NCBI GenBank assembly: GCA_018655525.1
Contig: JABIJM010000030.1
Location: 28,083 to 92,082, forward strand
Source: Candidatus Woesearchaeota archaeon
GTDB lineage: Archaea; Nanobdellota; Nanobdellia; Woesearchaeales; GW2011-AR9
Length of the DNA stretch: 64,000 nucleotides
Direction: 5' to 3'
A program made the position numbers and the translations under genes. The number at the start of each line of letters is the position of its first letter. Position 1 is the stretch's first letter. The notes under the pieces are model-generated. The model ran no database searches. It worked only from the letters and a program-made list of their open reading frames with translations, and was not told the DNA's origin. Below, one piece after another: positions 6,310 through 54,668 of this stretch.

Positions 6310-7098
6310 ATGTGGATTCATACACTTAACCCAGTACTTCTTAGCTTAGGACCATTAGAAATCAGATGGTATGGCATATCCTACGTTCTTGGATTTTTTC
6401 TAACTATATGGTGGATGCAATACATGCGGAAAAAGGGAGAGTTAAATCTCTCTAAAGACGAAGTATGGGATTTTGGATTCTGGATTCTTGTTGGAGTGAT
6501 TGTAGGATCACGTTTATTTGAAGTATTCTGGGAACCAGCACTTTATCTTACAAATCCACTTAATTTTCTCTATATATGGAAAGGTGGCATGAGTTTTCAT
6601 GGTGGTTTTGTAGGAACACTTGTTGCAGTGTATTGGTATTCAAGAAAGAAGCATCTTAATATCGCAAAGGTCTTTGACATTCTTGCAGTACCAACAATAT
6701 TTGCATTAGGATTAGGAAGAATCGCAAATTTTTTCAATGGAGAATTATGGGGACGCCCATTTAATGGAAATTGGTGTGTAAACTTCAAAAATACAGGAGG
6801 AGGAGATGTATGCAGGCACCCTTCAACATTATATGCAGCTGGAAAAAGATTCCTTGTGTTTGGATGGTTGTTATTCCTTGCATTAAAAAATAAGTTCAAA
6901 CCAGGTTTCATTGCATTAAATTTTGTATTTTGGGAGGGGCTAGGACGATTTATCGTTGACTTTTACAGAGATGAAAAAGTATTTTATCTTGCAAACACCT
7001 TCACAATGGGACAAATCCTTAGTGCAATTATGGTAGTTGTAGCAGGTTGGATATTGTTAAAACATTACAACGCAGAATGGAAAAAGATTTTAAAGTAA
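6310..7098 (+). CDS. lgt: Prolipoprotein diacylglyceryl transferase
   Basis: N-terminus LGPLEIRWYGISYVLGF, GGMSFHGGFVG, and the Lgt signature LGRIANFFNGELWGRP. Multi-TM, 262 aa. Confidence 0.8.
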   Translation: MWIHTLNPVLLSLGPLEIRWYGISYVLGFFLTIWWMQYMRKKGELNLSKDEVWDFGFWILVGVIVGSRLFEVFWEPALYLTNPLNFLYIWKGGMSFHGGFVGTLVAVYWYSRKKHLNIAKVFDILAVPTIFALGLGRIANFFNGELWGRPFNGNWCVNFKNTGGGDVCRHPSTLYAAGKRFLVFGWLLFLALKNKFKPGFIALNFVFWEGLGRFIVDFYRDEKVFYLANTFTMGQILSAIMVVVAGWILLKHYNAEWKKILK

Positions 7099-21159: not shown

Positions 21160-21864
21160 TTGATTTTTATTTTTAAGACACTCCAATCTTTTGTATTGCG
21201 AAAAGATGAGAGGTCAACGAAAATGAAAAATAAAGAGACATTAGCTGAAATCATTGGAATAATGCTTGGAGATGGTTGTTTGTACAAAGGACACGGATCA
21301 TATCAAACAATAATTACTTCTGGAAAAAATGAAAGAGAGTGGATAATGTATGTTAAAAATTTATTTGAAAACTATTTTGAGAAAACATTTAAAATTGTTG
21401 AAATCAAGTATGGGATTCAAGCAAAATGTCATTCAAAGGAAATTTTAGAGAAATTTTTAGAGGTGGGATTATGTCATGGAAATAAAGTCCATAATAAAGT
21501 CACGATCCCACCCTGGTTATTTCTTAAGAGAAAGTATTTAATTAAAACTGTTCAAGGTTTATTTGATACAGACGGTTGTGTTTATAATAAATATGGGAAA
21601 TATGCTCAAATTGAATTTAAATTTGGTTGTGAAGAAACAACAATATCTGTTTGTAACGCCGTAAGTAATTTGGGTTTTAATACTACAAAAGTTCAAAAAC
21701 AATATAATAATGCAACAGGCAAATATAGGTGGAGATTCTACTTATGTAGACAAAAAGAGATTGATTTATTTTTTGATATAATTAAACCAAAAAATTCTAA
21801 ACATATTGAAAGATATAAAAAAATAAGAAGTGGGGATACTGGGACTTTCAAATGGAAACGTTAA
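21160..21864 (+). CDS. LAGLIDADG homing endonuclease (double-motif; probable start at ATG 21223, MKNKETLAEIIGIMLGDGCL)
   Basis: Two LAGLIDADG motifs (IIGIMLGDGCL; VQGLFDTDGCVY). Paralog of 52946..53662. Confidence 0.7.
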   Translation: MIFIFKTLQSFVLRKDERSTKMKNKETLAEIIGIMLGDGCLYKGHGSYQTIITSGKNEREWIMYVKNLFENYFEKTFKIVEIKYGIQAKCHSKEILEKFLEVGLCHGNKVHNKVTIPPWLFLKRKYLIKTVQGLFDTDGCVYNKYGKYAQIEFKFGCEETTISVCNAVSNLGFNTTKVQKQYNNATGKYRWRFYLCRQKEIDLFFDIIKPKNSKHIERYKKIRSGDTGTFKWKR

Positions 21865-22082
21865 AAGTTTTCAAACGTTAATATCCATATTTGAACCCAG
21901 ATCTAAAGCTTGCTTCAAGGGAAGTTTATCATCGCCGAAGCTCAACATTCCATTACTGGAGGCTCCTATTCTACCAAGTTATACTATATCCCCACTACAG
22001 GAACAAAAGACACGCTCTCTTTTATTAAAGTTTCTCTTAAATTAACAATAAACATAAAAACAACGCCCTTATCTCAAAGAAC

Positions 22083-23189
22083 ATGATAGAATTAGATGGC
22101 GCATATTTGGAAGGCGGCGGAGCCTTAGTGAGAGTGGCGTTAGCTCTTTCAACAATCACAGGCCAACCTTTCAAAGTTACAAACATCCGTGCAGGAAGAC
22201 CAAAACCAGGATTAAAAGCGCAACATCTTACATCAATCAACACGTTAAAAGAATTATGTGATGCAAAGACTTCTGAAGTAAAGCTAGGAACAACTGAATT
22301 CTGGTACCATCCTAAAACTATTAAAAAAGGTAAGTTTGAGGTAGACATTGGTACGGCAGGTTCAATTTCTCTTCTACTTCAAGCATTAATGCTCCCTTCA
22401 TTATTCGCACCTGGAAAAGTAACTCTTACAATTAAAGGAGGAACATGTGGGAAATGGCAAGCCTCTGTAGATTACTTACAAAACATTTTACTCCCATATT
22501 TAAACAGATTTGTAGATTCCATTGAGATGAAAATCTTGAAGCGAGGATATTATCCAAAAGGTGGTGGAGAAATTCTTTTAGAGATACGACCACGATTTCA
22601 CATCAAAGAATTTGAAAATTTTAATTTATTTATGGAAGAGCTCCAATTCAAAACTCCACCAGTTACATTAATTGAACAAGGAAAATTGGAACAAATACGA
22701 GGCGTCATTAATGTTTCTTTAGAATTACAAGAAAAAGAAGTAGGTGATCGTATTAAGAGAATGATGGAATCAGTATTGAAGACCTATGAAGTTCCAATAA
22801 ACATTAGGGATGAATACGTAAATGCACGAAGTATTGGCGGGGAAACAGTTGTGTGGGCATTATTTAGTAAAGAAGGACAGATGGATTATGACAATCCAAT
22901 TATCCTTGGTGCAAGTGCATTAATTGAACCAGGAAGATCCTCAGAGGAGATTGGAAAAGAAGCAGCGAATAAATTAAAAGAACATATTAATTCAGAAACC
23001 GCAGTTGAGGAACATCTTGCAGACCAACTAATTCAATTCATGGGGTTAAGATTAGATTCAAAAATTAAAGTTGAAGAGATTACAAATCATACGAAAACAA
23101 ATATTTATGTTGCAGAAAAATTCTTACCAATTGGATTTAAGGTTGAAAAGAATATGATTAGTGTAGAATCTTCCTCAGAATCTCATTAA
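22083..23189 (+). CDS. rtcA: RNA 3'-terminal phosphate cyclase
   Basis: LDGAYLEGGGALVRVALALSTITGQPFKVTNIRAGRPKPGLKAQHL matches the RtcA N-terminal signature. 368 aa. Confidence 0.8.
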   Translation: MIELDGAYLEGGGALVRVALALSTITGQPFKVTNIRAGRPKPGLKAQHLTSINTLKELCDAKTSEVKLGTTEFWYHPKTIKKGKFEVDIGTAGSISLLLQALMLPSLFAPGKVTLTIKGGTCGKWQASVDYLQNILLPYLNRFVDSIEMKILKRGYYPKGGGEILLEIRPRFHIKEFENFNLFMEELQFKTPPVTLIEQGKLEQIRGVINVSLELQEKEVGDRIKRMMESVLKTYEVPINIRDEYVNARSIGGETVVWALFSKEGQMDYDNPIILGASALIEPGRSSEEIGKEAANKLKEHINSETAVEEHLADQLIQFMGLRLDSKIKVEEITNHTKTNIYVAEKFLPIGFKVEKNMISVESSSESH

Positions 23190-23982
23190 CTTCTTCAAAA
23201 CTTCCATCTTCTGTAATCACAACATCAAATTTCTCAGAATATGCACCTAACAACTCTTCTATTTTATCATTAAGAAAACCAATACGAATTACTTCGTCAT
23301 GATTCATTCCTTCTGTCATACCTAAATCTCCTAAACTATCTCCAAGTAAAATGACATTTGATTTTTTTGTTATTTCTTTTTGATATGGCGTAGAAGAAAT
23401 TTCATATTCATTCTTATTGAATGTATGTACATAATGTTCTGGAATTTCTTTAATTTTTCCATCTTCACTGAACGTAAAGAAATTCGCAACAAGATGAACA
23501 TTTGGTTTCATTAAATTCTCGGATTTTAAATATAATTCAATTAGATTACCAAAGCCAGCTGAGAAAATTAAAATTGGAACATCACCTAATAATGTGAAAA
23601 AATCTTCTGCACCAGAACGTAATTCTAATTTTCCTTTACTAATAACATCTTCCAACACACCCTGGTTCATTCCAGAATTCCACATTAATTCCCAATGTTC
23701 TTTCCACCATTGATCCATATATTTCTTCTTTTTATCTAAAGAAATTGTATTTGAAATTTCATAAGGATGATATTTATCAAAAAGAGCGTATGCTTGTTTT
23801 ACATAGTCAGGAGAAAGGTAATTTCCTTCACGAATTAAAGAATATGAAGAAAGAACTTTTTTTCCTTGAACAAACGCTTTTGTAAGAGTTTTATCAAAAT
23901 CAGAAACAACATGAAAATTATCTTTATTGAATTTTCCTAACTTTCGTTTTAGTTCTTCTGGATTTTGAATATATAGTGCCAT
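23158..23982 (-). CDS. HAD-superfamily hydrolase, pyrimidine 5'-nucleotidase (cN-III)-like
   Basis: HAD motif I VVSDFDKTLT, later ILLGDSLGD (motif IV-like). Size and cap are consistent with the cN-III family. Confidence 0.5.
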   Translation of the reverse strand: MALYIQNPEELKRKLGKFNKDNFHVVSDFDKTLTKAFVQGKKVLSSYSLIREGNYLSPDYVKQAYALFDKYHPYEISNTISLDKKKKYMDQWWKEHWELMWNSGMNQGVLEDVISKGKLELRSGAEDFFTLLGDVPILIFSAGFGNLIELYLKSENLMKPNVHLVANFFTFSEDGKIKEIPEHYVHTFNKNEYEISSTPYQKEITKKSNVILLGDSLGDLGMTEGMNHDEVIRIGFLNDKIEELLGAYSEKFDVVITEDGSFEEVNEILRKILH

Positions 23983-24014: not shown

Positions 24015-24647
24015 CTAAGGAGCTGTACTTCCTGGGATAAGATAATTCATGGGACAACAATTATTCCTCCCCATTTTCTTAACATCATATAGACCTTTAT
24101 CCGCAGAAACAATCATTCTATTTGCCATTTCTTCACGCTCAGTAGAAGAACCCAAATCAATTTTGGGTGTAAGTTTCCCATAAGAATCAACATCTAACGT
24201 TGAAATTCCTGCACTAAAGGTTATTCCTCTCGTAACACCTTCTTTTGGATTAAAAACAACTTTCTTAAAAGCCCAATGTAATCGCTGAAATGTTGCCAAT
24301 GCATTTTCAAAGTTAGTTTCAGGCATAATAATCCCAAACTCTTCTCCCCCATATCGTGCAAAAAGGTCTGTAGCCCTAAGGTGTTTTGAATAGAAATCCG
24401 CTGCCTTTTTAATAACATAATCACCTTCCAAATGACCAAAATTATCATTGTAAGCTTTAAAATTATCAATATCCATCATTGCCAAAGATAAAGGATGTTT
24501 TGATCTATCAAATAACGCAATGTGATATTGTAATTGATCAATAAATGTTCCTTTATTTGCAACTCTCGTCATAGAATCTGTAATTGCCATAGATCTAAAC
24601 TCACTATTAATTAATGCCATTTCAACTCTTGCCAACAAAGAGTCCAT
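24015..24647 (-). CDS. GGDEF domain protein (diguanylate cyclase-like) with an intact GGEEF active site and RxxD I-site
   Basis: ITDSMTRVANKGTF, MMDIDNFKAYNDNFGHLEGD, LRATDLFARYGGEEFGIIMP, ADKGLYDVKKMGRNN. The N-terminus (LLARVEMAL) looks like the last helix of a receiver domain. Confidence 0.75.
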   Translation of the reverse strand: MDSLLARVEMALINSEFRSMAITDSMTRVANKGTFIDQLQYHIALFDRSKHPLSLAMMDIDNFKAYNDNFGHLEGDYVIKKAADFYSKHLRATDLFARYGGEEFGIIMPETNFENALATFQRLHWAFKKVVFNPKEGVTRGITFSAGISTLDVDSYGKLTPKIDLGSSTEREEMANRMIVSADKGLYDVKKMGRNNCCPMNYLIPGSTAP

Positions 24648-24649
24648 AT

Positions 24650-24940
24650 TTAGAGGTTTCTCATTAAATCTAGTCCATCACGAGGAGTTTTACCAAGATT
24701 TAAATCCATTAAAATGAGATGAGGCTCTGTTTTTTCTAAAAGTTGTTCTAATTCGGGAGCAGAAGAAGCAGTGTATAAACGTTCATATCCTGCACTTTTT
24801 AAAACCAATTCTGTAGTTCTTTGAACAGAAGGTTCGTCATCTACAATAATAATACTATAAAATGGTTTATCTTCAGGAGGAATTCTTTTTGGTCTTACCG
24901 TTGATTTTCCATTATTGTGAATGATATCCATAGCTGCCAT
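24650..24940 (-). CDS. Response-regulator receiver domain, truncated (beta1-beta3 only), immediately upstream of the GGDEF ORF
   Basis: IIIVDDEPSV acidic pocket and LILMDLNLG phospho-acceptor Asp. Stops after about 96 aa. TAA-AT-ATG junction with the GGDEF ORF. Confidence 0.6.
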   Translation of the reverse strand: MAAMDIIHNNGKSTVRPKRIPPEDKPFYSIIIVDDEPSVQRTTELVLKSAGYERLYTASSAPELEQLLEKTEPHLILMDLNLGKTPRDGLDLMRNL

Positions 24941-25067
24941 ATAATATTTTGAGAGGTGACCCTATAAAAAGATTATTGTGAAAAAGTGGATATAACACCT
25001 CCAAAGAATAGTGTCCTGAACTATCCTTGCGGAAAACTTTATAAACAGACCTAATCTCAAATGCAAA

Positions 25068-33925: not shown

Positions 33926-34345
33926 ATGGGTGCGTTAAATAAACTAATGTTCTGGAAGAAAGATGATGACTTTGATTTTGATAGTGCATTGAATAAAGAA
34001 ATGACTCCAAGTGACATCCCTCCAATGGATAATCTTGGTTTAGATAGCCAGCCAACAGGCTTAGAAGAAAAATCTCCTTTTGATCATCCTGCACAACCAA
34101 CTGCAACAAGACCTTTTCAACAACAAGCAGCAAGCCCTTATGCTGCTCCTCAACAGCCTCAGCAAGCTTTTCCTTCGCCAGGTCAACCTTTACAAAGACC
34201 GGGATTTCAGCAACCTCCACCGCAAAATAATGATCTCATAAGTAGTAAATTAGATACCATTAAAGCACAATTAAGTTCTATTGAACAGCGTCTTGTAAAC
34301 TTAGAAAGAGCTGCGGGCGTACAGCAACAGAAAAAGTTATGGTAA
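33926..34345 (+). CDS. Gln/Pro-rich low-complexity protein with a C-terminal coiled coil
   Basis: PQQPQQAFPSPGQPLQRPGFQQPPPQ then LDTIKAQLSSIEQRLVNLERA. Preferred over the overlapping minus-strand ORF 33924..34220. Confidence 0.35.
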   Translation: MGALNKLMFWKKDDDFDFDSALNKEMTPSDIPPMDNLGLDSQPTGLEEKSPFDHPAQPTATRPFQQQAASPYAAPQQPQQAFPSPGQPLQRPGFQQPPPQNNDLISSKLDTIKAQLSSIEQRLVNLERAAGVQQQKKLW

Positions 34346-34782
34346 ATTATAAAAAATTCTTTTGGAGTATTGTGACTTTAGTTGTAGTTTTAGATCAATT
34401 AACAAAGTATTTGATTTCTACGTTTAAACCAAACCTTGATTTGGTTCTGCTCAAAATCCATTATCTTACAAACACAGGAGCAGGATTCAGTATTCTTACG
34501 GGAAAAACGTGGATTCTAGCGATAATATCATTGATTGTGATTATAGGATTAATCTATTATTACAAAGATATTCCTAAACAAAAGACACCACAATTATTAT
34601 TTGCGTTATTTCTTGGAGGTGCAATTGGAAATTTTATTGATAGGGCACTTAGAAATTATGTCATAGATTTTATTGACTTCGGTTGGTGGCCAGCATTTAA
34701 TATTGCAGATATGGCATTGACAATCTCTGTGGTTGGATTAATTCTATATTACATTATAGAAGAAAAAAGTAACAAAAAATAA
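34339..34782 (+). CDS. lspA: Lipoprotein signal peptidase (signal peptidase II)
   Basis: NTGAGFSIL, LGGAIGNFIDRA, VIDFIDFGWWPAFNIADMALT are the LspA conserved boxes, including the catalytic Asp pair context. Confidence 0.8.
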   Translation: MVNYKKFFWSIVTLVVVLDQLTKYLISTFKPNLDLVLLKIHYLTNTGAGFSILTGKTWILAIISLIVIIGLIYYYKDIPKQKTPQLLFALFLGGAIGNFIDRALRNYVIDFIDFGWWPAFNIADMALTISVVGLILYYIIEEKSNKK

Positions 34783-40007: not shown

Positions 40008-40358
40008 ATGATCACAATATACTACAACTCAAAATGTAGCAAATGTAGACAAACGCTTGCATTATTACAAGAAAAAACAGATGAAGAGATTAATATCATT
40101 GAATATCTAAAAACGCCACCTTCAATTGAAGAACTTCAACAAATCCTACAAAAATTAAATCTAAATCCTCAAGAGATCATCAGAAAAGGTGAAGAAGAAT
40201 TTCAAGAATTTAAGGGAAAAGAATTCTCAGATAAAGAATGGATCCAGATATTACACGATCACCCAAAATTAATTCAACGACCAATTGTAATTATAAATGA
40301 GAAAGCAGTTATTGCACGACCACCAGAAAATGTGTTAAAAATATTACAACTCCCGTAA
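40008..40358 (+). CDS. ArsC/Spx-family thioredoxin-fold protein
   Basis: MITIYYNSKCSKCRQTLALL (CxxC near the N-terminus), IQRPIVIINEKAVIARP. 116 aa. Confidence 0.7.
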   Translation: MITIYYNSKCSKCRQTLALLQEKTDEEINIIEYLKTPPSIEELQQILQKLNLNPQEIIRKGEEEFQEFKGKEFSDKEWIQILHDHPKLIQRPIVIINEKAVIARPPENVLKILQLP

Positions 40359-42974
40359 CTTCTTCAAGGTATCATCAACATGTGTTTTCTTTTCCTTAAT
40401 TGCTTTTGGAGATCCACCACCATGCCATGTAAATCGTGGACGCATTTGTACAGGGAAAATACGTTCATTTGCATCATCAAAGACAACTGCTGCTCCTTTC
40501 ACACGCGGGAGATGATCTATTTCATCTACCAATCCAGTACGCATGTAACTCTGTGTTAATTGTCCTAACGCCTCTGTATCCATTTGTGCTGTTAATCTAT
40601 GAGCAAGAACCGTATCTGATTGTGTCATAACATCTGTGTGAATTTTTGCAGGTTGTTGAGTTGCAAGAATTAAACTGATTCCTGGTTGACGTCCTTCACG
40701 TAAAATTGTAATTAATGCATCTGAAGCTGCTGTTTTTCCATCATGAGGAAGAAGTTCATGTGCTTCATCAATTGCGAGCCATACTAACGGTTCTGTCATT
40801 TTTTCTTCAGTATCTTTAGAAAAATAATGCATTGCAGCATCTACAGATTTGAATTCTTCTGTCTTTCGTGCAAGCATTCTTTGATTAAACAATGTCCGAC
40901 TAATTAAACCTACAACTAACGCTTTAATTTCCCAACCAGAAGCCATAGTTGCATAAGGAGAAACATCTAAAACAGTTACTTGACCGCCTGCAACAATATC
41001 CTTCAAGGGGGTTCCTTCTTTAGAAAAAATACCCCATCCTTTTGCTTTTTGAAATTGATTTTCAACAATATTTCTTACAACTTTTTCTGAATCTTTTTCT
41101 TGAGAGATAAGAGAAATGAGTTCTTCCATATCATAAGACTCATTTTTATCTTTTAAATTTTGAACCACTTTTGAAATAAGAACACCTTCAGCAGTATTCA
41201 ATGAAATGTCAAATGCCCGACTCCAGTCTAAAGGATCAACATCAATTGGACGTATTGAAAACGGAAAATCTGTAGGGATTCCTTGTTCTTTATATTTGTA
41301 AAAGAAACCTGAAGGGGTATAAATTTTGACATCTAATGCCTTTGGATCAAATCCCCATTGTTTCACGAGATCTGAGTCTTGAAGATTAGGATATTTCATT
41401 GTCCAATAAATACCCATCGTATCCAATAAAACAATAGAAAGGTTTTGTTTGATTTCAACGGGTAAATCCGCTAAACCTTCTGCAATAGAACCCATGGTGT
41501 ATGAATTATGAACAATGATACCATTAGCAACAAAATTGTGAGTTTCAGGAACAGTAATGTCATAAACAGTTTCATTTCCTTCAATTTCTTTGATAGCCAC
41601 TATTTCATCCCAAAAAATATCTGAATTCGCAAACTTAGAAAGTAAATCAGATTCATCTGCAACAGCAATTTGTAATAATTTTTGTCGTGAAGGAGAATAT
41701 TTTGTACTTTCACGTAAAGCTTTAGGATGAGCATAACCCATCTTCCTTCCAATTGCTGCCCAATTATCTGGTTTATACATATCCCAAATTTCTTTTGGAA
41801 CAGTATCAACATTAGGGTTTCTAATAATTTTCACTGATTCTTTTAAAGCAATTACAGAACGTTCTTCTTTTTTACCATAAAAACCTATCTCCTGAAGATA
41901 CGTGTTAACATTTTCTCCATAAATCTCCAATTCATTAGCCTCAAATCCCTTTTGATTAACTTTTTTACGGATTTTAGCTACAATTCCGAAACGTAATAAT
42001 AAATGTTGTACCTGAGAAATTAATTGATCAGAAATAGAACAATAACTTACAAACCAATGATTTGCTTTTTTGTAAATTGTCCCATCGCAAGAAAACAAAC
42101 GATTTAAAAATAAACTAATTTGATGTTTTGGCATTGTAAAAATACAATCAGGAACAAATTTTGTTAAAGACCTAGTCTCATAAAGTTTAAGTTCTTCAAG
42201 CCAATTACGTATTGATGAATGATCCCATTTTGGATTGTTAATAAATTGTCCATTCTCATCTCTTGAACTTTGCTCTTTCATTACTTTTTTGATTTGGGAA
42301 ACTCTAAAGCAAGAATCATCACTGTGCCGTTCAATTCTTAAATTATCATCAAAATCATAAACTGATTGTTTAAAATCTGAAACAATTTTTTGATCTTTAT
42401 TAGAAAATAAAACAAATCTATTTCCTAAATGGCCTTCAGCAATAAGATAAGCTAAAAGTTTAACTTCACATTCCTTTATTGATAAATCACCAAAAGATTC
42501 CAATTTACGTGGTGTTGCAACTCTTGAACCTATATTCAATTTTTCTATTGGAGACCAACCCTTAACAGTTAACAATGGATGCTCCGGAGTTAATTTAATG
42601 ATTTTACCGGTTCTAAACTTAACTTCAAATATTCGATCAACCTCCCTTTTATAAAAGTGAGATTTTTGACCTTCTTGAATCTTAAAATCAGAATTTAAAG
42701 TATAAATATTTTGATTCTTTTCTTCTAAATCTTTAATTTTTACAAGAGAACCATCATCAAGTGTAATTAAAGTATCACCATGAAGACATTTTCCACTCCC
42801 TCTTTTGCCGACGATAAAGACAACATGCGCTCCTGCGACATCCATGTACACAGGATTAGAAAGAGATGTGGTTTGACCCATCTTAACATATTGTTTTCCA
42901 ATAAGAACGGTTCCTTCCTTGCCAAACTTTTCCACGTCTTTTTTGCTTCTGCCGATAATAACATCAAACACCAT
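40344..42974 (-). CDS. HerA/DUF87-type P-loop ATPase (FtsK-HerA superfamily) interrupted by an intein in the Walker A motif
   Basis: Extein: VVFIVGKRGSGK|SYTMGS (Walker A), LAIDEAHELLP (Walker B), ILATQQPAKI (DUF87 ATQRP-like). Extein total about 448 aa. Confidence 0.6.
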   Translation of the reverse strand: MVFDVIIGRSKKDVEKFGKEGTVLIGKQYVKMGQTTSLSNPVYMDVAGAHVVFIVGKRGSGKCLHGDTLITLDDGSLVKIKDLEEKNQNIYTLNSDFKIQEGQKSHFYKREVDRIFEVKFRTGKIIKLTPEHPLLTVKGWSPIEKLNIGSRVATPRKLESFGDLSIKECEVKLLAYLIAEGHLGNRFVLFSNKDQKIVSDFKQSVYDFDDNLRIERHSDDSCFRVSQIKKVMKEQSSRDENGQFINNPKWDHSSIRNWLEELKLYETRSLTKFVPDCIFTMPKHQISLFLNRLFSCDGTIYKKANHWFVSYCSISDQLISQVQHLLLRFGIVAKIRKKVNQKGFEANELEIYGENVNTYLQEIGFYGKKEERSVIALKESVKIIRNPNVDTVPKEIWDMYKPDNWAAIGRKMGYAHPKALRESTKYSPSRQKLLQIAVADESDLLSKFANSDIFWDEIVAIKEIEGNETVYDITVPETHNFVANGIIVHNSYTMGSIAEGLADLPVEIKQNLSIVLLDTMGIYWTMKYPNLQDSDLVKQWGFDPKALDVKIYTPSGFFYKYKEQGIPTDFPFSIRPIDVDPLDWSRAFDISLNTAEGVLISKVVQNLKDKNESYDMEELISLISQEKDSEKVVRNIVENQFQKAKGWGIFSKEGTPLKDIVAGGQVTVLDVSPYATMASGWEIKALVVGLISRTLFNQRMLARKTEEFKSVDAAMHYFSKDTEEKMTEPLVWLAIDEAHELLPHDGKTAASDALITILREGRQPGISLILATQQPAKIHTDVMTQSDTVLAHRLTAQMDTEALGQLTQSYMRTGLVDEIDHLPRVKGAAVVFDDANERIFPVQMRPRFTWHGGGSPKAIKEKKTHVDDTLKKLREL
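41505..42788 (-). mobile_element. Intein (428 aa) with an embedded LAGLIDADG homing-endonuclease domain
   Basis: Starts CLHGDTLITLDDG and ends IIVHN|S. Internal LLAYLIAEGHLGN and LNRLFSCDGTIY motifs. Inserted after the Lys of GKRGSGK. Confidence 0.7.
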
Positions 42975-52627: not shown

Positions 52628-52727
52628 GGGCCTGTAGCCTAGCCTGGATAGGGCGCCAGCCTTCTATATGAGAAAGCAATTCTCTGAAGGCAGCTGGATA
52701 CCGTGGGTTCGAATCCCTCCTGGCCCG
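52628..52727 (+). tRNA. tRNA-Arg (anticodon UCU) with a 25-nt intron (52667..52691) after position 37
   Basis: Acceptor GGGCCTG/CTGGCCC (one U-U), D-arm GCCT-AGCCTGGATA-GGGC, anticodon stem CCAGC/GCTGG around loop CUUCUA+A, T-arm GTGGG-TTCGAAT-CCCTC (one U-U), discriminator G. Confidence 0.55.
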
Positions 52728-52945: not shown

Positions 52946-53662
52946 ATGAAAATGGATAAAATAAATTTATATGAGTTTATTGGAATTATGATTGGTGATG
53001 GATGTTTATTAGATTATCCTAAACATAACATTTATGGTATAGAAATAACGGGAAACGCAACTGAAGAAGTAGATTTTTATAAAAAAATAGAAGAGTTCAT
53101 TAAATCAAATTTTGATGTGAATGTAAGAGTTCATGTTCGTAAAGATAAAACGGGACAATCCTTAAAATTAATTTGTTACAGCAAAATACTAGCAAATTTT
53201 CTAAAGAAACAAGGTATAAAAAGAAATAAAACCTATTCAACACAAATTCCAAGTCATTTATTAGAATGGAAATACAGTAAATATGTGATTAAAGGAATCT
53301 TTGAAACTGATGGCTGCATTTATTTCTCTAAATCTAAAAAGATAGCTTATCCAACCTATCCGCGTCTTGAAATTTGTACAGCTAGTTTACAGTTAGCTAC
53401 TCAAATCATTAAAATTTTAAACACAAATGGATTTACCGCAAGATCATATATTAACAAAAACACGATAACTATTTATATGAGCGGTGAAAATATGCTTAAT
53501 AAGTGGTCTACAGAGATAGGCTGGAGCGGTCTAAAAAATCAAACAAAATATGACCTTTGGAAATCTTTAGGATACTACATCCCAAAAATTTCACTTCCAG
53601 AAAGATTAAAATTATTAGGCGTCGGTGGCAAAGTGGCTAATATTGACCTCATAAGTCGATAG
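52946..53662 (+). CDS. LAGLIDADG homing endonuclease (double-motif)
   Basis: FIGIMIGDGCL and IKGIFETDGCIY motifs. Paralog of 21160..21864. Its last about 14 codons overlap the 5' exon of the downstream tRNA-Cys candidate. Confidence 0.7.
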   Translation: MKMDKINLYEFIGIMIGDGCLLDYPKHNIYGIEITGNATEEVDFYKKIEEFIKSNFDVNVRVHVRKDKTGQSLKLICYSKILANFLKKQGIKRNKTYSTQIPSHLLEWKYSKYVIKGIFETDGCIYFSKSKKIAYPTYPRLEICTASLQLATQIIKILNTNGFTARSYINKNTITIYMSGENMLNKWSTEIGWSGLKNQTKYDLWKSLGYYIPKISLPERLKLLGVGGKVANIDLISR

Positions 53663-53715
53663 CAAGCAGTCCCCTGCAGAGGGACGGATCGGGGGTTCGA
53701 GTCCCTCCCGGCGCT
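53619..53715 (+). tRNA. tRNA-Cys (anticodon GCA) candidate with a 21-nt non-canonical insertion (53648..53668) between D-arm and anticodon stem
   Basis: The 3' part is unambiguous: anticodon arm GTCCC-CUGCAGA-GGGAC, variable GGATC, T-arm GGGGG-TTCGAGT-CCCTC, acceptor 3' CCGGCGC, discriminator U. The candidate 5' part GCGTCGG-TG-GCAA-AGTGGCTAATA-TTGA has a perfect acceptor match and D-loop invariants, but a weak D-stem. Confidence 0.45.
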
Positions 53716-53982: not shown

Positions 53983-54668
53983 TATTTTAATGTAATCCTC
54001 TTTTCAAATTGCAAATTATGTGATAAAAAAATAATCCTAAAATTCCCTTTCTGTGCAAATTCTATAGGATGTAACGCACGAGATGCGGGGATGAATTTTT
54101 TAAGAATGTCCTTTTCAGATTTTTTAAATTTTCCAATTGTATTTAGCTTCGTTTTATGTCCAGCTTTCTTAAATGAATAATTTACTAATTCCGTACAAAA
54201 GAATTTATTAGCTTTCCCAGAAAAATCAAAGTCATACGGTTTTCCTACTTGTTCCAATGCATGTTTAATTGTAAGTGAGATAATTTTCTTTCTATTTTTG
54301 ATTCCCTTCGGTAAACGCATAATAATCATTGTATCATATTCTGTAAAAAAATGATGTAATGAATTTACACCAACACCATCACCTACTGCTTCAACAAACT
54401 TCTTTCTTCCGATATACAAACTTGCATGCGTAACTGGACCTTTAATGAATAATGAAGATACTTCACGTAAGTTTCCCCACAATACCACGTCTCCCTTTCG
54501 TAACTTTAATCTAGCTTTTAATAAATCAACATGATTCAACTGATTCTTTCGCTTATGGATAACAAGTCCGGTGATGAAATAAATGAAATTTGCAGAGATT
54601 TTTTTGTAAAAAGGATAGTCTTTAGGAAAATTCGTAATTAAATGATATTTTTTAATAATTTCAAACAT
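53982..54668 (-). CDS. YiiX/DUF830-like permuted papain-fold (NlpC/P60-like) hydrolase
   Basis: GDVVLWGN...VTHASLYIGRKK (Cys/His-containing N-motif region) and later YDFDFSGKANKFFCTELV (catalytic Cys context). Confidence 0.45.
   Translation of the reverse strand: MFEIIKKYHLITNFPKDYPFYKKISANFIYFITGLVIHKRKNQLNHVDLLKARLKLRKGDVVLWGNLREVSSLFIKGPVTHASLYIGRKKFVEAVGDGVGVNSLHHFFTEYDTMIIMRLPKGIKNRKKIISLTIKHALEQVGKPYDFDFSGKANKFFCTELVNYSFKKAGHKTKLNTIGKFKKSEKDILKKFIPASRALHPIEFAQKGNFRIIFLSHNLQFEKRITLK

Follow-up and report, generated by a model that had tools for sequence, protein, structure and literature searches.

A response-regulator diguanylate cyclase gene of the receiver-GGDEF (REC-GGDEF) type lies in two pieces within a 64-kb stretch of DNA from a Candidatus Woesearchaeota archaeon (64,000 nucleotides (nt); the whole of this stretch is referred to below as the window). 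On the minus strand, a truncated REC open reading frame (ORF) is followed across a TAA-AT-ATG stop/start junction by a second ORF with a complete GGDEF domain, so that receiver and GGDEF are not on one polypeptide but occupy two ORFs of different frame (Table 1). The junction reads ...AGA AAC CTC TAA AT ATG GAC TCT..., in which the REC ORF ends with three codons (RNL) and a stop that are frameshifted sequence lying past a deletion junction. Upstream, the GGDEF frame is itself shut by a TGA that lies 33 nt before its own ATG; this ATG corresponds to ATA (Ile) and GTT (Val) at the related loci L010 and L016, respectively.

Table 1. Features of the split REC-GGDEF gene in the window (aa, amino acids; L-numbers denote related loci).
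Feature	Position	Strand	Description or basis
Truncated REC ORF	24650..24940	minus	96 aa; ~28-aa clade-specific N-terminal extension, then REC beta1 to alpha3
GGDEF ORF	24015..24647	minus	210 aa; receiver helix alpha5/linker (MDSLLARVEMALINSEFRSMA), then complete GGDEF domain
Stop/start junction TAA-AT-ATG	24645..24652	minus	stop at 24650-24652, ATG at 24645-24647
Deletion scar GATTTAATGAGAAACC	24655..24670	minus	DNA alignment and codon alignment with L010, L016, L020 and L017
Active-site motif GGEEF	24336..24350	minus	regular-expression match; columns invariant in family alignment
I-site RATD (RxxD)	24366..24377	minus	5 residues upstream of GGEEF; Arg and Asp columns invariant in alignment
TATA-box-like element TTTTTATA	24963..24970	minus	23-30 nt upstream of the REC ATG

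The GGDEF ORF matched both Pfam PF00990 (E 8.3e-35, 120.4 bits; cut-off 23.8) and TIGR00254 (E 2.2e-41, 141.3 bits; cut-off 37.4), as well as the NCBIfam DgcR model, the latter with an E-value of 6e-31 that corresponds to a score well under the equivalog cut-off of that model. From I-site to active site the protein reads RATD-LFARY-GGEEF, and the metal- and guanosine triphosphate (GTP)-binding motifs DIDNFKAYND, GHLEGD and ADKGLYDVKKMGRN, and likewise the stretch MMDIDNFKAYNDNFGHLEGD, occupy columns of the family alignment that do not vary, and also align to WspR. The Asp of the GHxxGD motif, which marks specificity for cyclic di-GMP (c-di-GMP) and not Hypr/cyclic GMP-AMP (cGAMP) specificity, is retained. 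The domain further carries a clade-specific insertion of ~17-18 residues before its last helix and a Cys-containing C-terminal tail (NNCCPMNYL). Its predicted activity is the synthesis of c-di-GMP from two GTP by a dimer, the receiver expected to provide that dimer being broken in the window copy.

The REC ORF, by comparison, matched Pfam PF00072 (E 1.4e-11, 44.9 bits; cut-off 30.2) at profile positions 1-64 of 111 only, from beta1 to alpha3; the score passes the cut-off with the second half absent, and a whole (beta-alpha)5 receiver is not covered. Retained in this stump are the acidic pocket (IIIVDDE, VDDE) and the phospho-acceptor Asp (LILMDLNL). The conserved Ser/Thr that closes beta4 and the Lys that closes beta5, which in intact orthologues lie in IVISG and (F/L)EKP, respectively, and are invariant in the clade, are absent from the window, both falling within 36 deleted codons. 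Without two of its five strands, the 96-residue stump cannot be a receiver. An earlier note on this DNA, made from the sequence alone, had read the locus as a half receiver followed by a GGDEF ORF with a frame break at TAA-AT-ATG, the upstream ORF being a partial CheY-like receiver that keeps the DD pocket and phospho-Asp but has lost the T/K half, and the downstream ORF opening with receiver alpha5 and holding a full GGDEF domain with GGEEF and a RATD I-site, with about 35 residues missing from the whole. ORF coordinates and junction sequence, the PF00072 match, the alignment with intact orthologues (36 codons and 1 nt absent), and the Pfam and TIGR scores together with the invariant columns agree with each part of that description. 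The profile searches that it proposed (PF00990 and PF00072) matched both families above cut-off, PF00072 partially, and a GGDEF alignment inspected for degenerate catalytic residues, as it had also suggested, showed all catalytic and I-site residues kept.

An intact counterpart of the gene was identified in a sister species (locus L010), where a single 342-residue REC-GGDEF ORF (P0002; NQV91436.1) with 77-78% amino-acid identity is found in the order Zn-ribbon protein, REC-GGDEF, RtcA and permease, with flanks 81-85% identical to the window at the nucleotide level. Pairwise DNA alignment of the two loci revealed a single gap, at which the window lacks 109 nt (36 codons and 1 base). The lost segment, KRIDEERLAVTDYIVISGERDHNLIGECMAYAIDFM, comprises receiver beta4, alpha4 and beta5, with the clade-invariant Ser and, just after, the Lys. 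The edges of the gap are GATTTAATG and GATTTTATG, and the breakpoint lies in an imperfect short direct repeat with a 5' copy of GATTTAATG(A)GAAA and a 3' copy of GATTTTAT(G/T)GAAAA. By codon, the copies read GAT TTA ATG AGA AA and GAT TTT AT(G/T) GAA AA, respectively. The GAAA(A) homology thus stands in differing codon phase in the two copies, such that one deletion event would explain both the loss of 36 codons and the frameshift. Judging from the extant sequences, a single slipped-strand or microhomology-mediated event may have deleted the 109 nt, after which the receiver would no longer be able to fold or signal, and phosphorylation-dependent activation would have been lost. The possibility of a minimal half-receiver regulator, also raised by the earlier note, is not supported by this comparison: what is left in the window derives from a gene that the sister species keeps intact and that has here lost 109 nt.

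The split was found well beyond the window itself. An exact match to the 210-residue protein occurs on at least 23 contigs, and all nine contigs fetched as DNA, from nine samples and with SPAdes-, MEGAHIT- and Logan-style names, show the 96- and 210-residue pair with the same neighbours. Their identity to the window is 99.6-100%, and none of them differs at any position of the 926-bp gene pair; elsewhere, two of the nine differ at 12-16 positions (0.3-0.4%). A tenth place (a JGI sample, read as gene calls only) has the same gene calls, and the exact 96- and 210-residue proteins are also present in four NCBI metagenome-assembled genomes (MAGs) named Candidatus Woesearchaeota archaeon, including MBT3836623.1/MBT3836624.1, with a longest contig of 275 kb. 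The lesion is genuine, and every contig sampled from this population carries it. A frame break seen in one window only could stem from faulty assembly or sequencing, in an organism that has one intact REC-GGDEF ORF, and low-coverage metagenome contigs do contain errors. Nevertheless, with layout and sequence identical in nine independent contigs from nine samples, obtained with several assemblers, and in the four MAGs, and with a 109-nt deletion and no homopolymer miscount separating the window from its intact orthologue, the assembly frameshift listed among the options of the earlier note is refuted. Programmed -1 ribosomal frameshifting near the junction, by which both ORFs would be joined into one functional protein, was also considered, given that GGDEF is read in the -1 frame with respect to REC and that the two overlap by sequence context. 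Against this, a slippery heptamer of the form X XXY YYZ is missing from GAT TTA ATG AGA AAC CTC TAA, the upstream TGA closes the GGDEF frame, and any fusion would still be without beta4-alpha4-beta5; we therefore regard frameshifting as very improbable.

The gene is resident in an archaeal chromosome. The G+C content is 29-37% throughout the window, with no step at the locus, and Pfam searches identified Topo VI A and B, eIF-1A, aIF5B, Hef (helicase and ERCC4), RLI/ABCE1, an intein-bearing ATPase and an HVO_2753-type Zn protein among flanking genes of archaeal or archaeal/eukaryotic signature; EF-1beta (EF1_GNE) and Trm1 are known from the precomputed annotation of contigs identical to the window. 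In addition, Rfam detected three transfer RNAs (tRNAs) of 97-117 nt, an intron-bearing length. The archaeal host named in the earlier note is in agreement with these flanking archaeal-signature genes. The TATA-box-like element TTTTTATA is likely the archaeal promoter of a leaderless or short-leader transcript. TATA-like motifs occur at -45..-15 in 24 of the 57 window ORFs, and several of these ORFs have, by eye, a CTTTATAAA-type box at a spacing like that of the REC ORF (a sigma-70 promoter and terminator scan, which is not applicable to an archaeon, served only for locating TTTATA). That the gene sits on bacterial DNA misjoined or misbinned with an archaeon is an explicit worry of Galperin et al. 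2018 concerning bacterial-type regulators on archaeal contigs (PMC5847659). Here, however, the locus lies inside a 64-kb window of uniform composition with archaeal genes on both sides, the TATA-box spacing of the REC ORF is that of its neighbours, the gene is syntenic in the sister species, and clade members occur on archaeal contigs of 0.6-1.56 Mb, a context that refutes contamination.

A number of neighbouring features were also noted. A UMPH-1-type pyrimidine 5'-nucleotidase gene (PF05822, E 1.7e-72; 23158..23982, minus strand) stands between the GGDEF ORF and rtcA, and is missing at the matching position in L010 and L020, where REC-GGDEF abuts rtcA directly. A 166-nt tRNA-like gene (21830..21995, minus strand), apparently with two introns, has the acceptor GTGGGGA...TCCCCAC and a GGGTTCAAAT T-arm and was missed by both ARAGORN and Rfam; it is 90.6% identical to L010 over 149 nt, which is above the flanking coding DNA. 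At 21160..21864 on the plus strand, a free-standing LAGLIDADG endonuclease-like ORF is found that does not occur at the syntenic L010 site. A second such ORF (52946..53662, plus strand) lies between intron-length tRNA genes at 52628..52727 and 53619..53715, its 3' end overlapping the latter. The intein-bearing ATPase, a large protein that is HerA/FtsK-like by eye (40344..42974, minus strand), is interrupted by a LAGLIDADG intein (Intein_splicing, E 1.3e-26; LAGLIDADG_3, E 4.3e-18). By eye only, two further ORFs resemble bacterial-type lipoprotein machinery, namely an Lgt-like prolipoprotein diacylglyceryl transferase (6310..7098, plus strand) and an LspA-like signal peptidase II (34339..34782, plus strand).

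The split gene belongs to a well-separated, Woesearchaeota-specific clade of DgcR-like REC-GGDEF regulators. With a profile of six intact relatives, the lowest-scoring member of the clade reached 284 bits, compared to 231 bits for the best bacterial protein. Intact members (P0002, P0003, P0004/P0006/P0007, P0008, P0077, P0078, P0079/P0082 and P0080) are 329-376 residues in length and carry REC and GGDEF on one polypeptide. Contigs with intact members reach 677 kb and 1.56 Mb, and those members that bear a name are Candidatus Woesearchaeota; how the clade is spread taxonomically among archaeal genomes is based on protein-database names only. Identity within the clade reaches down to 45-48%. Searches of GTDB genome contigs with the clade alignment and of metagenome contigs with P0002 yielded, among the matches listed, bacterial loci at 26-43% identity as the best bacterial relatives, and one useful locus only (L103). 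Three traits of the clade are absent from the bacterial homologues, namely an N-terminal extension with NGKxxxRP, a tail of the form N(G/N)C(Y/C)PxN(C/Y)L at the C-terminus and, ahead of the final GGDEF helix, the insertion of ~17-18 residues. Genomic context varies among the deep lineages and is archaeal in all: the gene adjoins an S13-S4-S11-RpoD operon in L017; TrmB regulators, GAPDH and DnaJ in L013 (the locus of P0008); MutS and a beta-CASP/KH nuclease in L183; and a methyltransferase in L192 and L186. We infer that an ancestor of the clade gained the gene horizontally long ago and that it was then inherited vertically within Woesearchaeota, becoming an ordinary resident gene with a host-type promoter.

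Variation within the clade extends to the receiver itself. In a subclade comprising P0079, P0082 (L192, 10001..11128) and P0085 (L186), Glu replaces the phospho-acceptor Asp (LILTELDLG) and LDPN replaces the DD pocket, which hints at a receiver that might work without phosphorylation, i.e. a pseudo-receiver fused to an apparently active GGDEF domain. Elsewhere in the clade, an acylphosphatase gene (PF00708; L193, 4249..4515, minus strand) overlaps the 3' end of the intact P0080 gene, with no kinase nearby, and may matter if small acyl phosphates are the phosphodonor. In the P0008 lineage, P0075 and P0076, from single ENA contigs, are fragments of 206 and 108 residues that are jointly without the GGEEF segment, while P0073 is an 85-residue receiver stump; these may represent further strain-level lesions or low-coverage assembly errors.

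Damage to the gene is not confined to the window lineage. In L020/L021/L022, which are 68% identical to P0002 and share the RtcA neighbour, a TAG replaces the conserved Gln in LDQLQYH, giving ORFs of 172 and 149 residues in three assemblies, with an extra frameshift in L022. A 1-nt frameshift in receiver helix alpha1 splits the gene of L183-185 into 72 and 278 residues on at least 10 contigs, and a 1-nt frameshift in an A-run after alpha3 splits that of L186 into 136 and 242 residues on two contigs, the syntenic relative L192 being intact. Finally, L187-191 (corresponding to L103) have lost ~300 nt of the receiver and suffered a frameshift, leaving 36 and 204 residues on at least eight contigs, of which five were fetched, from five samples. 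Damaged lineages, including that of the window, thus number 5 of ~13, each with one or two lesions. Given that these are of differing kind, the lesions are independent and fairly recent, and their frequency suggests that the system is dispensable in these reduced genomes.

Based on these comparisons, the window gene is probably a recently inactivated copy of an old, domesticated, horizontally acquired REC-GGDEF gene of the DgcR/WspR type, an instance of gene decay that has also struck four other lineages independently. Of the options in the earlier note, a decaying horizontally acquired gene therefore comes closest, with the amendments that the acquisition is old (clade-wide, to 45-48% identity) and that the decay is lineage-specific and recurrent. 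The GGDEF part would still be intact because the lesion is young. Were the 210-residue product translated at all, by termination-reinitiation, it would represent a poorly dimerising, unregulated cyclase of low activity. GGDEF catalysis needs a dimer supplied by the receiver or a stalk, and the isolated GGDEF domains of REC-GGDEF cyclases such as WspR and DgcR are weak, from which a low-activity, unregulated residual product would be expected. The PDB listing includes a GCN4-WspR fusion entry (3i5c).

Several observations weigh against decay and would instead suit a GGDEF ORF that still works, being translated by reinitiation at TAA-AT-ATG as a stand-alone, signal-independent cyclase checked by its I-site, the loss of the receiver having been tolerated or selected in small-genome archaea apparently without a cognate histidine kinase. 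In a genome of 33% G+C, the 633-nt GGDEF ORF is free of additional stops and frameshifts, all catalytic and I-site residues are retained, and an ATG has been created at the junction exactly 2 nt past the stop, at a codon that specifies Ile or Val in relatives. In four of the five damaged lineages, the lesion lies in the receiver with the GGDEF spared (the window, L183-185, L186 and L187-191), and in L187-191, with nearly the whole receiver gone, the 204-residue GGDEF ORF persists; receiver loss could thus be tolerated or even favoured. No histidine kinase was seen beside any clade member, and in the subclade of P0079, P0082 and P0085 the phospho-acceptor Asp has already given way to Glu. The receiver and leader, however, make up ~41% of the gene, so that four of five lesions in this part correspond to a non-significant binomial p of ~0.1, and the lesion searches favoured GGDEF-containing fragments; we do not treat the receiver-side bias as established.

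Substitution patterns were also examined. The ratio of non-synonymous to synonymous substitution rates (dN/dS) between the window and intact orthologues is 0.10-0.17 for GGDEF and 0.15-0.17 for the receiver stump, compared to 0.18 and 0.20, respectively, between intact genes. Changes in GGDEF unique to the window lineage comprise 10 non-synonymous and 16 synonymous ones, with the caveats that a branch-specific dN/dS obtained by parsimony is crude and that dS is near saturation (0.5-1.4), such that the lesion is not datable. Outgroup distances are equal for damaged and intact lineages, with no acceleration in rate. Population polymorphism is uninformative as a test of selection, there being zero differences in the gene pair among the nine contigs. 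With dS of 0.5-1.4 between species and no population polymorphism, dN/dS shows only that most of the divergence predates the lesion, and the figures fit a very recent lesion and continued purifying selection on GGDEF equally well.

The expression signals of the second ORF argue less favourably for a functional cyclase. Neither a Shine-Dalgarno motif nor a TATA box at the correct spacing precedes the GGDEF ORF, the host-type TATA box being kept by the REC ORF. Shine-Dalgarno motifs are found in only 6 of the 57 window ORFs, by eye mostly genes closely behind an upstream gene. Lacking both signals, the GGDEF ORF would depend for its translation on reinitiation at TAA-AT-ATG. Moreover, the nonsense codon in L020/L021/L022 falls inside GGDEF, so that some members at least can do without the cyclase itself. 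Considering these points and the poor activity of isolated GGDEF domains without a receiver- or stalk-borne dimer, we hold a working stand-alone cyclase in the window to be unlikely, and retain decay of a resident gene as the preferred reading.

Potential signalling partners were sought both in the window and around the clade. Neither EAL, HD-GYP, PilZ or MshEN proteins nor a histidine kinase were seen in the window by reading of translations, Pfam searches of nine unassigned ORFs and six-frame motif regular expressions, ~40 ORFs being assessed by eye only; the earlier note, which had seen no EAL, HD-GYP or PilZ partner here, is borne out to that extent. Among the nine unassigned ORFs, eight had no Pfam match and one is a papain-like amidase. 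The six-frame scan matched GGEEF itself, one G2-box pattern (GDGVGV, 54366..54383) and two PilZ patterns, with no match to an H-box; the two PilZ-pattern matches contain stops and were rejected as artefacts. Topo VI B is the sole HATPase_c match among the scanned window ORFs. In the precomputed annotation of flanks, no HisKA or kinase lies within ~10 kb of any clade member examined, and no c-di-GMP riboswitch (GEMM) was detected by Rfam in the window, L010, L013 or L017. Adjoining the P0008 gene, and divergently transcribed, is a 189-residue protein (L013, 8761..9330, minus strand) with a Pfam MshEN match (PF05157, E 2.6e-19) at residues 96-184. Given that this match covers only the C-terminal subdomain and that the N-terminal RLGxxLL..G binding motifs are not apparent, the protein was not counted as a c-di-GMP receptor; it has no homologue in the window. 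A broader proposal is that the Woesearchaeota clade runs a minimal signalling system based on c-di-GMP or another GGDEF product, without histidine kinase, EAL/HD-GYP or PilZ, and that the repeated receiver lesions (the window, L183-185, L186 and L187-191) represent selected conversion to a stand-alone, I-site-limited cyclase, not decay. We consider this proposal rather improbable.

GGDEF proteins have previously been associated with archaeal DNA. Galperin et al. 2018 reported no GGDEF regulators in complete archaeal genomes, noted a GGDEF protein of Methanocella arvoryzae (CAJ37382) and a REC with inactive GGDEF in 'Ca. Micrarchaeum', and added a contamination caveat (PMC5847659). In the BLAST results of Braun et al. 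2021, GGDEF hits from archaea exceeded 300, with DPANN and Asgard contributing many of them; the same study found no c-di-GMP in Haloferax or Sulfolobus (PMC8646023). According to Römling 2022, GGDEF proteins on archaeal contigs 'need[s] to be confirmed' (PMC10086821), and a 2023 review describes c-di-GMP as undetected in any archaeon (PMC10249747). The earlier note's view that a GGDEF domain in an archaeon is very surprising was thus overstated, such proteins being annotated in NCBI and numbering more than 300 hits in PMC8646023. Like these earlier examples, the present clade is a bacterial-type GGDEF on archaea-assigned DNA; unlike them, it has a canonical active site, forms its own clade, and has a residence backed by synteny and very long contigs, with the window copy disrupted. 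While the existence of such genes was already known and annotated, what is new here is one clade that is demonstrably resident in archaeal chromosomes, retains canonical catalytic residues and has been repeatedly lost. For this clade the contamination caveat is answered by residence, interspecies synteny, a host-type promoter and archaeal contigs as long as 1.56 Mb. Of more interest than the broken window copy are the intact orthologues, e.g. P0002 (NQV91436.1) and P0008, as candidates with which c-di-GMP synthesis by an archaeal enzyme could be tested biochemically for the first time.

Among characterized systems, the closest solved full-length relative is DgcR of Leptospira biflexa (6zxb/6zxc/6zxm), a small prototypic Rec-GGDEF diguanylate cyclase. 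Residues 24-295 of P0002 align with chain residues 22-296 of DgcR at ~30% identity only, and the two share one receiver, a short helical alpha5 linker running straight into GGDEF, the GGEEF motif and an RxxD I-site. In contrast to DgcR, the archaeal clade has an N-terminal extension of 28-40 residues (NGKxxxRP), the GGDEF insertion of ~17-18 residues and a Cys-containing tail, and the window copy is split and without beta4-alpha4-beta5. WspR of Pseudomonas (3bre, 3i5a) and PleD of Caulobacter (1w25) are likewise response-regulator diguanylate cyclases with I-site feedback inhibition, and residues 165-331 of WspR align with the window GGDEF ORF, including the terminal ADKGLY..K..GRN helix. Both nevertheless differ from the clade in architecture and partnership: PleD has two receivers and WspR a long coiled-coil stalk, and whereas none was found near any archaeal clade member, WspR and PleD work with cognate kinases or chemosensory systems.

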